Shown here: positions 59,714 through 62,292 of the stretch, one piece after another
Layout: every line of letters starts with the position of its first letter
Position numbering within the stretch: position 1 is the stretch's first letter
Origin: a phage
Length of the DNA stretch: 64,000 nt
Strand: one strand, 5' to 3'
Sequence record: PZ179880.1
Position numbers and translations under genes: made by a program
Notes under the pieces: generated by a model
What the model saw: the letters and a program-made list of their open reading frames with translations, nothing else
Database searches by the model: none
What the model was told of the DNA's origin: nothing

Positions 59714-60682
59714 TTATTTCAGAAGAGTAACCTCAGCAATTTCTTCCCAACCGTTTTTGTCGGTCATAATAAAGTCAGCAAGATAAAGAGCAGTACGCAG
59801 TGAAACATTGCGTAAACGATTAACATTAACTTTCATCCATGATAATGCTTTATAAGTTTCTTCATCAGAAAGACCGCGCTTTTGCATCATGTCAGTTGAA
59901 AGAATAACATCTTCAACCCTGACCATAATTTCTTCATTAGTGTGAACACCCAAATCCAAATAAACCGAGCGGGACACTAATGCTTGTAAATGTGGAGCAA
60001 GTTTAGTACCACGGTCTAATTCGCGGTCAATGTCAACGTTTGTGATAAAAACAATCGTTCCTTTAAATTCAAACTCACGCTCAATGCCTTTTTCTTCTAA
60101 GTAAGAAGATGCGGTGCTCCAGCAGACTTTACGGGTCTCTCCAGTGTCCAGAGCAGCTTTCAGAAGATTAAGAATGTCCATATCAGAGAAAACATCCACA
60201 TCATCAATCAAAAGGACAGAATTCTCTTCACGATTATTCCAAAGCTGCTCATAAAGACCAATACCAGAGATTTTACCATTAATGCTTTTATATTCAATGT
60301 ATCCAATATCATTTGCTTTATTTAAAGCTTTATCTAAAGAATACGTTTTACCAATACCTGCTGCGCCAGAGATAATTAATGAACGAATATTTCCATTAAT
60401 AATACCATTCGTCATCATTCCCATAACATTAAATCTTTTATTAATGCGGGTTTTCATATCTTCATACGATTCTTTAATTTCTTCAACTTTTACACCATCA
60501 TATGAAATATCTGATTTGTAAACCCAAACACCGCGACGTTTACCGTCAATTTCAACAAAAACTTTACCATCTCCTTGTGCATCTACCGGAGCATTATCTG
60601 GGAACCATTCGCCTAAGAGCTCAAAAGTTCCAGAGATTTCTTTACCGAAGTAGATACCCTTATTGATAGTTACAGTTTTCAT
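59714..60682 (-). CDS. P-loop NTPase (AAA-like ATPase), 322 aa
   Basis: Walker A GAAGIGKT, Walker B VLLIDDVD; start set at MKTVTINK with GGAGA SD. Confidence 0.65.
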   Translation of the reverse strand: MKTVTINKGIYFGKEISGTFELLGEWFPDNAPVDAQGDGKVFVEIDGKRRGVWVYKSDISYDGVKVEEIKESYEDMKTRINKRFNVMGMMTNGIINGNIRSLIISGAAGIGKTYSLDKALNKANDIGYIEYKSINGKISGIGLYEQLWNNREENSVLLIDDVDVFSDMDILNLLKAALDTGETRKVCWSTASSYLEEKGIEREFEFKGTIVFITNVDIDRELDRGTKLAPHLQALVSRSVYLDLGVHTNEEIMVRVEDVILSTDMMQKRGLSDEETYKALSWMKVNVNRLRNVSLRTALYLADFIMTDKNGWEEIAEVTLLK

Positions 60683-60718
60683 TTTATTCTCCAATTTTAC
60701 ATTTGTTTTGATAGGGTA

Positions 60719-60747
60719 ATAGTATCACACTACTACCCTGCTGTAAA
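60719..60747 (-). promoter_or_regulatory. T4-type early promoter upstream of the ATPase gene (-35 TTTACA, -10 TACTAT, TGn)
   Basis: Minus-strand GTTTACA..N17..TGATACTAT. Confidence 0.6.
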
Positions 60748-60751
60748 CAAT

Positions 60752-61015
60752 TTATTTTAATGTTTGCCAAATTTTTACTGCTTCGCGACGAGATACTTCT
60801 ACGGCGCCAAGTTCTATAGCTTTTTGGCGTCGCCGAGCGTGTAAGTCATAATGTTTAATGCGTTTATCTTGAAACCAAGAACGTTTCATTCCTATTGCTT
60901 CTGCCATTTCATGAAGCTCTTCAATATCTCCATCAGTGAACATATGACAATTTTTAGTTGGATGACCGCGAAGTTTCCATCCATGATTCATTAAAACATC
61001 TACGTAAACTGTCAT
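60752..61015 (-). CDS. Hypothetical protein (87 aa), possibly DUF4031-like
   Basis: MTVYVDVLMNHGWKLRGHP...HYDL pattern; family assignment from memory, low certainty. Confidence 0.45.
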   Translation of the reverse strand: MTVYVDVLMNHGWKLRGHPTKNCHMFTDGDIEELHEMAEAIGMKRSWFQDKRIKHYDLHARRRQKAIELGAVEVSRREAVKIWQTLK

Positions 61016-61161
61016 TGATTCTGCTCCAAATATGTTTCTATAATTTTCTGAGCGAGATAAACTGCATTATCTTCAGTTGCATCTTCTAAGAAACTTTCAA
61101 AACACTCTGAAATTTCTTCTGTGTCAATCAACTTTTTTACTTCAATTGGTGTAATTTTCAT
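61012..61161 (-). CDS. Hypothetical small acidic protein (49 aa)
   Basis: Track ORF trimmed to MKITPIEVKK..., the first ATG downstream of the promoter at 61199-61227. Confidence 0.35.
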   Translation of the reverse strand: MKITPIEVKKLIDTEEISECFESFLEDATEDNAVYLAQKIIETYLEQNQ

Positions 61162-61198
61162 TTTGTTTTTCCGTTTAAGTGTTTGTTTTGATAGTTGT

Positions 61199-61227
61199 AT
61201 AGTACCATAAAGCTTTATGCTTGTAAA
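61199..61227 (-). promoter_or_regulatory. T4-type early promoter (-35 TTTACA, -10 TACTAT, TGn, UP element)
   Basis: Minus-strand GTTTACA..N17..TGGTACTAT. Confidence 0.65.
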
Positions 61228-61250
61228 CAATTTTGTGAAAAATTTTTGAA

Positions 61251-61276
61251 ATAAAAAAGGGAGCCCGAAGGCTCCC
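61251..61276 (-). terminator. Rho-independent terminator after the nucleotidyltransferase-like gene
   Basis: Stem gggagcc/ggctccc, loop cgaa, then U-run on minus transcript. Confidence 0.7.
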
Positions 61277-61278
61277 TA

Positions 61279-62292
61279 TCATTTATAATAACTTCGGTGG
61301 TTTTCAAGATAAACCCTCTCAAGGAAGTCATCCCAAAAACCCATGTCTACTTTTTGCTGCATACCGTTCTTAGAAGCTTCAGTAGATGCTGCTTCTACTT
61401 GATCGACCACATCTTCCAAAAACTCTTGAACCGTTTTAAATGGATGTTTACCCAACTTCACGTCGAGAATAAATGGAGCATCTTGGAGTGGATAAACCAA
61501 GTCACCAGTTTTGTAAATTTCCAATAGTTGGAGTCCACCACGGCAAGCATGACTCAGAGCTTTCCAGTCAATACCTTCATTGGCTTCGGCCTTACGAGCA
61601 CGTTCACCGTATTCAGCATCTAATTTGTTCAGTGACTGCTTAAGCTCAATAAGAGAAAGCGTTGTCTGATATTTACGACCCAACACTGTGTAGAACGTCT
61701 GTGGGCCTGTTTTCTCATGATTATGGAACACCCATTCACAGAATTCGTTTTCTGGAAGACGATGCTTAATATCTTCAACTTTAGTACGACGCTGCTTAAT
61801 GGAACCGTCTTCTTGGTAATCAACCCATTGCTCAGGGATTTGATTAACTACTTTCAATACATCACGTAATGCAGCCAAACGAGAACCCTTAACGCCGTAT
61901 TTAGAAGCTTGCTTACGGACATATCCTAAATAGGATTTCATGTTAGTCGTATAAAAACGAGAACGGTTGTCTTGAATAAACTTCCACACATCAGGCAAAT
62001 CAGATTTAACCACTAGTTCAGGTGGAGTGTGAAGCATATCTAACGCTACAGTTTCACCATCTGCTGCTAATTTAAAGAAATACTTAAGACTATACAATTC
62101 GTGGTCAATATCATCTTTAGTGTTTTTAGATGATGTGTTGTTAGTGTTTTTACTCATGTGCTCTTTAACATTTCCGATAAGAATATCACGAGCAGGAGGA
62201 ACAAAGATTTCTTTAAAATCTACATCAGATTCTGGGGTAGAAGTTCCATAAAGATGACTACCAAAATAGCTTTTCATTACTGTTTTCATCAT
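61279..62292 (-). CDS. Predicted nucleotidyltransferase-fold protein (Pol-beta superfamily signature), 337 aa
   Basis: N-terminal GSHLYGTSTPESDVDF = hG[GS]-x(9-13)-DxD pattern, plus downstream acidic DMLH. Confidence 0.55.
   Translation of the reverse strand: MMKTVMKSYFGSHLYGTSTPESDVDFKEIFVPPARDILIGNVKEHMSKNTNNTSSKNTKDDIDHELYSLKYFFKLAADGETVALDMLHTPPELVVKSDLPDVWKFIQDNRSRFYTTNMKSYLGYVRKQASKYGVKGSRLAALRDVLKVVNQIPEQWVDYQEDGSIKQRRTKVEDIKHRLPENEFCEWVFHNHEKTGPQTFYTVLGRKYQTTLSLIELKQSLNKLDAEYGERARKAEANEGIDWKALSHACRGGLQLLEIYKTGDLVYPLQDAPFILDVKLGKHPFKTVQEFLEDVVDQVEAASTEASKNGMQQKVDMGFWDDFLERVYLENHRSYYK

Follow-up and report, generated by a model that had tools for sequence, protein, structure and literature searches.

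What does the 337-codon gene on the minus strand at positions 61279..62292 of the 64-kb stretch of phage DNA analysed here (the window) encode, and on what might its product act? The preliminary description of this locus had recognized the N-terminal signature of a Pol-beta-type nucleotidyltransferase (NTase), and had named nucleotide signalling and the nucleotidylation of RNA or of protein as possible roles. The open reading frame is present where it had been placed, running from the first ATG to a TGA stop codon at 61279-61281, although its strand had been left unstated. As judged from its sequence, the gene encodes the orthologue of T4 NrdC.11, a predicted nucleotidyltransferase of the RlaP family (PF10127) within the Pol-beta superfamily.

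The window belongs to a Tequatrovirus. Many T4-like coliphages are 98-99% identical to it over the 3.5 kb that surround nrdC.11, and the closest complete phage is ECML-134, whose NrdC.11 protein is 100% identical to that of the window. T4 NrdC.11 (AAD42629.1; AF158101 55435-56445) is 98.5% identical over its full length. In addition, the T4 gene lies on the same strand, at the same position in the nrdC-tk early region, and is followed by the same terminator and downstream early promoter. One difference between the two phages concerns the start of the gene. The window phage has two adjacent ATG codons in a start region (GAATGATGAAA) that overlaps the TGA of the upstream gene, whereas T4 has the second ATG alone. 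Because T4 has only this second codon, and because most homologues are 336 aa long, the true start is probably 62289, which would give a protein of 336 aa. The preliminary description had allowed for a match to a known T-even protein without enzymatic function. A known T-even protein is indeed what the gene matches, but one that belongs to a nucleotidyltransferase family.

Two family profiles match the protein. The Pfam RlaP profile (PF10127, E 2.4e-11) does so with 44.3 bits, above its gathering threshold of 23, but only over residues 7-135, which correspond to profile positions 23-142 of 249. The same profile is matched by 136 of the 137 sequences in our alignment (see below). The match to PHROG 388, "nucleotidyltransferase," runs from end to end (E 8e-137). 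Neither nrdC.11 nor four genes near it had a match in NCBIfam or PADLOC. Of 50,697 phage records, 1,565 contain a homologue of NrdC.11. These include Straboviridae infecting Escherichia, Klebsiella, Aeromonas, Acinetobacter and Vibrio, and extend out to Sinorhizobium phage phiM12 (29% identity). When 1.84 billion representative proteins were searched exhaustively, 3,421 clusters came up at E<=1e-3, with 827 of them at E<=1e-30, and the best-scoring 150 clusters are mainly full-length proteins of 310-350 aa.

The nucleotidyltransferase call made in the preliminary description is therefore right, given PF10127, PHROG 388 and the fold matches described below, but it is not new. RefSeq already annotates the gene as "nucleotidyltransferase," and nrdC.11 was tied to the nucleotidyltransferase COG3541 in 2006 (PMC1524935). 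Its placement in RlaP came later, the family having been named by Burroughs and Aravind in 2016, according to the papers that cite them (PMC12776372; PMC7824862). Since both the enzymatic class and the family are known from RefSeq and the literature, the locus is not a new kind of system. GenBank and UniRef carry other names for the homologues, "thioredoxin" in many cases and "HNH homing endonuclease" in one. The first seems to have spread from the name nrdC.11, nrdC being the thioredoxin gene of T4, and the second is probably derived from the neighbouring mobD gene.

How much does the signature itself contribute to this assignment? The sequence FGSHLYGTSTPESDVDF, residues 10-26 (62215..62265, minus strand), fits both the loose pattern G[GS]-x(9-13)-D-x-[DE] and the stricter form hG[GS]-x10-DhDh, with G11, S12, D23 and D25 in the key positions. 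The loose pattern also turns up in 8.9% of shuffles of NrdC.11, and the strict form with hydrophobic flanks in 0.6%. Of the 90 stop-to-stop open stretches in the window that reach 100 codons or more, only one has the strict form. By itself the motif is modest evidence, and it is the matches to PF10127 and PHROG 388 that make it solid. The signature reported in the preliminary description is thus both matched and backed by family profiles.

Conservation among homologues points to the same residues. When the window protein was aligned with 136 representatives of this full-length kind from the protein search (35-55% identity; 137 sequences in total), G11 and S12 proved to be present in all 137, and D23 and D25 in 136. 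Position 63 is acidic in every sequence, with Asp in 133 and Glu in four. D63 (codon 62104..62106, minus strand) lies in the sequence DDIDHE, at the start of the strand formed by residues 62-68. Profile alignment, conservation and a structural model all point to it as the probable third catalytic carboxylate. The hG[GS] loop, the DxD on the strand that follows and a third conserved Asp are therefore all present in NrdC.11. Beyond the presumed active site, Y132, H248, R251 and P268 are invariant (137/137) and K244 is conserved in 136.

One record shows an interrupted reading frame. The sequence of phage vB_EcoM_G9062 (NC_054920; 5700-5805 of the stretch extracted from it, L001) has an additional C in ACCCCAG, a run located between the codons for G-S and those for D-V-D. 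This causes a frameshift, and RefSeq annotates a 323-aa protein that starts past the G-S loop. Either the homopolymer was misread in sequencing or the gene is truly inactivated.

The preliminary description had suggested structure prediction and a fold search as a check on its reading. An AlphaFold2 (AF2) model built from the 137-sequence alignment (mean pLDDT 94.9, pTM 0.86) does contain an NTase core. The model consists of an alpha/beta core with strands at residues 3-10, 24-31, 45-49 and 62-68, followed by a linker helix, a beta insert and a C-terminal helical bundle. The core occupies residues 1-135 (61888..62292), the beta-rich insert residues 153-212 (61657..61836) and the bundle, which is KNTase-C/HEPN-like, residues 213-337 (61282..61656), all on the minus strand. 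Five strands are predicted within residues 155-209 of the insert, which is specific to NrdC.11-type proteins and poorly conserved (mean conservation 0.26, 22% gaps). The bundle contains a conserved helix, D242-W-K244-A-x-S-H248-A-x-R251 (61540-61569, minus strand).

Searches of the PDB by sequence, with the single protein and with the 137-sequence profile, found no related chain in a copy that appears to be without the crystal structure of the Pseudomonas protein PfRlaP. When the model was compared with solved structures by fold, the best matches were all Pol-beta-type NTases, albeit with weak Foldseek scores (best E 5e-3). They include kanamycin nucleotidyltransferase ANT(4') and the NTase-like protein 3c18, which are about 10% identical to NrdC.11 and share no sequence family with it. 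Among predicted viral structures, numerous phage "nucleotidyltransferases" match the model, with TM scores up to 0.73. PfRlaP itself consists of an NTase domain and a helical domain with a cleft between them (PMC12776372). From the model, we infer that D23, D25 and D63 cluster in space and that a similar cleft separates the core of NrdC.11 from its C-terminal helical domain.

Where does NrdC.11 stand within its family? A profile-profile comparison with 11 short canonical RlaPs aligned residues 7-134 with a probability of 94.5 (E 7e-8), and placed D23, D25 and D63 on the invariant D37, D39 and D73 of the short proteins. The core is the sole part of NrdC.11 that aligns with either the Pfam RlaP profile or the short RlaPs, so that confident alignment is limited to the first ~135 residues. 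The C-terminal 200 residues gave a weak alignment (E 0.075), although one that pairs K244-x3-H248-A-x-R251 with K-x3-Y-A-L-R of the short proteins. NrdC.11-type proteins are also longer, at about 320-340 aa compared with about 250-280 aa for the short RlaPs encoded next to them in bacterial loci. Unlike the short proteins, they have the beta insert and a diverged C-terminal bundle, with Y132, H248, R251 and P268 as invariant residues of their own. A published sequence similarity network likewise separates the two, with NrdC.11 in cluster 5 and Pseudomonas RlaP in cluster 1a (PMC12776372).

The cellular relatives of NrdC.11 provide a clue to function. One genome per species was scanned, and NrdC.11-type proteins turned out to be encoded in 156 stretches. 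From these, the best 80 loci were selected, at 32-54% identity, and the genes next to them were clustered and scanned against Pfam. Most of the 80 belong to Desulfobacterales, Nitrospirota and Alphaproteobacteria, and a few are from archaeal MAGs. RtcB is a neighbour in 10 of the 80, Pnkp in eight, Hen1 in seven and Ro60 (TROVE/vWA) in four. Either RtcB or Pnkp is found in 15 of the 80 loci, and in 11 of the 45 that have at least 4 kb on each side. Hen1 and Ro60 are often present too where RtcB or Pnkp flanks the gene. The association with RNA repair that defines RlaP thus holds for the long clade in cells, because these are the genes that its cellular members adjoin.

A second feature of these loci is a pairing of long and short proteins. 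In 21 of the 80, a short canonical RlaP is encoded directly downstream of the NrdC.11-type gene and on the same strand, and such pairs often lie inside RtcB, Pnkp-Hen1 or Ro60 operons. A Nitrosospira locus (L041, 3558-16629) has the order Ro60 - RtcB - long RlaP - short RlaP - Hen1 - ... - Pnkp, and its short RlaP matches PF10127 at 175 bits. We found no mention of the pairing in the literature on RlaP and NrdC.11 that was examined. In phages, the short form was found in jumbo phages of Pseudomonas, Brevundimonas, Caulobacter and Burkholderia, and no Escherichia or Shigella phage is among the 80 matching records.

The phage locus itself looks different. No RNA-repair gene stands beside nrdC.11 in the window, where its neighbours encode a membrane protein, a DUF4031 protein and a P-loop ATPase. 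ECML-134 does have genes for Pnk and for RNA ligases 1 and 2, which favours a role in RNA repair, but they lie 55-84 kb from nrdC.11, and the lack of an adjoining repair gene counts against such a role. In Sinorhizobium phage phiM12, an RNA ligase gene is located 3.3 kb upstream of the NrdC.11 homologue.

RNA repair was first described in the form of the T4 pathway consisting of Pnk and RNA ligase. By itself, to our knowledge, it cannot restore a tRNA that is short of a nucleotide. What if NrdC.11 supplies the missing step? This would explain how T4-type phages might cope with anticodon nucleases that excise nucleotides, and it would give a function to the gene found in those 1,565 phage records.

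A nucleotidyl-transfer assay like the one put forward in the preliminary description has recently been carried out with bacterial members of the family. In a bioRxiv preprint of December 2025 (PMC12776372), Carruthers, Fatma and Huang report that Pseudomonas RlaP adds one or two NMPs to the 3'-OH of RNA. The enzyme prefers Mn2+ and labels neither DNA nor protein. When offered a mimic of a cleaved tRNA, it favours the broken end at the anticodon loop. Its 3'-OH product suits RNA ligases that use a 5'-phosphate, the class encoded by T4. The authors propose that RlaP restores nucleotides taken out by "smart" ribotoxins such as RloC, and they name T4 NrdC.11 as a family member (PMC12776372). Iyer and colleagues made the same repair prediction for the RlaPs of jumbo phages (PMC7824862). 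The RlaPs of Pseudomonas fluorescens and P. aeruginosa share with NrdC.11 the PF10127 domain, the G-S / D-x-D / third-Asp site and, as far as the model of NrdC.11 predicts, an N-terminal NTase followed by a C-terminal helical domain. Cellular homologues of both types are found in operons of RtcB and other RNA-repair genes. Nucleotidylation of RNA is therefore favoured among the three options of the preliminary description, since characterized RlaPs label RNA 3'-OH ends (PMC12776372) and the cellular members of the NrdC.11 clade sit in RNA-repair operons.

With moderate confidence, we propose that NrdC.11 is an RNA 3'-end nucleotidyltransferase with a place between Pnk and Rnl1 or Rnl2 in the repair pathway, where it would rebuild RNAs, probably tRNAs, trimmed by host nucleases. 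In this scheme, G11-S12 and the D23/D25/D63 triad would bind the NTP and two divalent metal ions, probably Mn2+. The broken RNA would lie in the cleft that the NTase core forms with the C-terminal bundle, whose conserved helix contains K244, H248 and R251. Once the phage polynucleotide kinase-phosphatase had produced a 3'-OH, NrdC.11 would transfer one or a few NMPs to it without a template, and RNA ligase 1 or 2 would then seal the break. Nucleotides excised by host anticodon nucleases such as RloC would be replaced in this way, making NrdC.11 an accessory factor for RNA repair in counter-defence. Activity on RNA is suggested by analogy with Pseudomonas RlaP, and the nature of the substrate and the part played in counter-defence are further extrapolations from it. 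T4 tolerates a deletion from nrdC.11 to mobD.3 (PMC9825161), and this dispensability fits an accessory role. A weakness of the repair model, conceded by the authors of the biochemical study, is that template-independent addition gives the correct nucleotide only some of the time (PMC12776372). Moreover, the choice of substrate by NrdC.11 could differ from that of canonical RlaP, because residues 7-135 alone align with the latter and the C-terminal part does so weakly.

Perhaps NrdC.11 acts on a different RNA end. It might repair or extend tRNA 3' ends, restoring CCA at the acceptor ends of phage or host tRNAs rather than mending anticodon-loop breaks, or it might add tails to other RNAs. Deutscher, Foulds and McClain reportedly found in 1974 that the maturation of some T4 tRNAs needs the host CCA-adding enzyme, which argues that T4 has none of its own. 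Pseudomonas RlaP labels the 3' ends of full-length tRNA and rRNA in total RNA as well (PMC12776372), and jumbo phages often encode CCA-adding enzymes together with RlaP (PMC7824862). However, the head domain of CCA-adding enzymes and poly(A) polymerases (PF01743) is not among the Pfam matches of NrdC.11 at E up to 0.1, and the match to NTP_transf_2 is below threshold (13.6 bits against a cut-off of 21). Furthermore, the preference of RlaP is for the broken anticodon-loop end over the acceptor end (PMC12776372). We regard this alternative as unlikely.

Protein is a less probable target still. NrdC.11 might nucleotidylate a protein of host defence or of the phage, just as MNT-type antitoxins AMPylate and neutralize HEPN toxins. 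HEPN-like matches do occur, but they fall on the C-terminal bundle of NrdC.11 itself, an arrangement shared with kanamycin nucleotidyltransferase. The minimal NTases of MNT-HEPN systems are small (~100-150 aa) and encoded beside a HEPN toxin gene, whereas NrdC.11 has 337 aa and no HEPN gene adjacent to it. In addition, Pseudomonas RlaP left E. coli proteins unlabelled (PMC12776372).

We attach even less weight to the idea that NrdC.11 makes or mimics a nucleotide signal, either in the manner of a CD-NTase or by producing HalB-like oligonucleotides that, for example, keep a host effector off. The model does match the Hailong oligodeoxyadenylate synthase HalB (9dbh), but only in the generic NTase core, at 16% identity, and the family to which NrdC.11 belongs is RlaP. 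HalB, a defence component with HalA as its partner, has 217 aa and is without the insert and the long C-terminal bundle. PADLOC found no match, neither a CD-NTase profile nor a CD-NTase or cGAS/DncV-like fold is among the matches, and the genes adjoining the cellular homologues encode RNA-repair factors rather than effectors. The signalling option of the preliminary description has thus found no support.

Least probable of all is that NrdC.11 modifies small molecules or DNA ends like an aminoglycoside or lincosamide nucleotidyltransferase or a terminal transferase, since the presence of kanamycin nucleotidyltransferase, ANT(4'), AadA and LinB (ANT(4') acting on small molecules, unlike the role proposed for NrdC.11) among its fold matches has to be set against the weakness of those matches (TM <0.3 over the full length), the lack of any sequence-family match, the absence of an obvious use for antibiotic modification to a phage and the finding that RlaP uses no DNA acceptors (PMC12776372).

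The reading of NrdC.11 as an RNA 3'-end nucleotidyltransferase for repair can be taken one step further, although only tentatively. NrdC.11-type proteins may be a distinct "long" subfamily of RlaP, and the tandem arrangement with short RlaP could then reflect divided roles or a heteromer. T4-type phages would have kept the long form only. Together with Pnk and Rnl1, it may rebuild RloC-cut tRNAs that lack a nucleotide, which would make it a third component of T4 tRNA repair. We consider this extended scheme possible but doubtful.

How is the gene embedded in its transcription unit? The strong hairpin terminator noted in the preliminary description was borne out. It begins one base past the TGA (61252..61277, minus strand) and consists of AGGGAGCC-UUCG-GGCUCCCU (61277..61258) followed by U6, in other words an 8-bp G+C-rich stem, a UUCG loop and a U tail. 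Its predicted folding energy of -17.3 kcal/mol (z -3.6) was not reached in any of 200 shuffles. The terminator is kept in T4 and is annotated as such in phage G9062. Just downstream and outside nrdC.11 is a T4-early-type promoter, GTTTACA-N17-TACTAT (61199..61228, minus strand), which would start the next transcription unit. The motif GTTTAC-N17-19-TAYWAT has 18 matches in the window, against 0.27 expected by chance. Because all 18 are on the minus strand, the whole 64 kb is predicted to be an early region with one direction of transcription, and this context supports the label "early" that had been given to the gene. There is no match to this motif between 61229 and 64000 of the window. Transcription of nrdC.11 therefore probably begins at a more distant upstream promoter, or else at a weaker one or a middle promoter.

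The neighbours named in the preliminary description, a membrane-protein gene on one side and a DUF4031-like gene and a P-loop ATPase gene on the other, are all there, but a short open reading frame next to nrdC.11 had been omitted. The upstream gene encodes 153 aa and matches PHROG 944, "membrane protein," whereas T4 has the mobD homing endonuclease gene at that place. Downstream of nrdC.11 come the short frame (72 aa, probably 49 aa), the gene for the 87-aa DUF4031 protein (60752-61015, minus strand; 76.8 bits) and the nrdC.10 orthologue (59714-60694, minus strand). No relative of the DUF4031 protein was found by sequence among solved structures, and the family name occurs in one paper only of the full-text collection. 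NrdC.10 is a 326-aa P-loop NTPase (PHROG 1250) with the Walker A sequence GAAGIGKT and the Walker B sequence LLIDDVD; its matches to AAA_14 and nSTAND3 are both below threshold. nrdC.10 also keeps its place near nrdC.11 in Acinetobacter phage AC4 (66% identity), whereas none of the 80 cellular loci contains it. The NrdC.10 ATPase, the DUF4031 protein and the membrane protein were each considered as functional partners and rejected, as no homologue of any of them occurs in those loci. The DUF4031 cassette is, moreover, missing from T4 itself. For these reasons we view the local genes as neighbours by synteny, not as partners.

The short frame and the DUF4031 gene together form a cassette (60700-61260 of the window, minus strand) that separates nrdC.11 from nrdC.10 in the window phage and not in T4. 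It is flanked by two copies of the element GTTTACA-N17-TACTAT...CTATCAAAACAAA, with the promoter-like parts at 61199-61228 and 60719-60748, a spacing of 480 bp. T4 has one copy, directly ahead of nrdC.10. Of 540 matching phage records, 137 contain the cassette at a coverage of at least 80%. With a promoter-like element on either side, it resembles the modular insertions that have been described in the hyperplastic regions of T4-type genomes.
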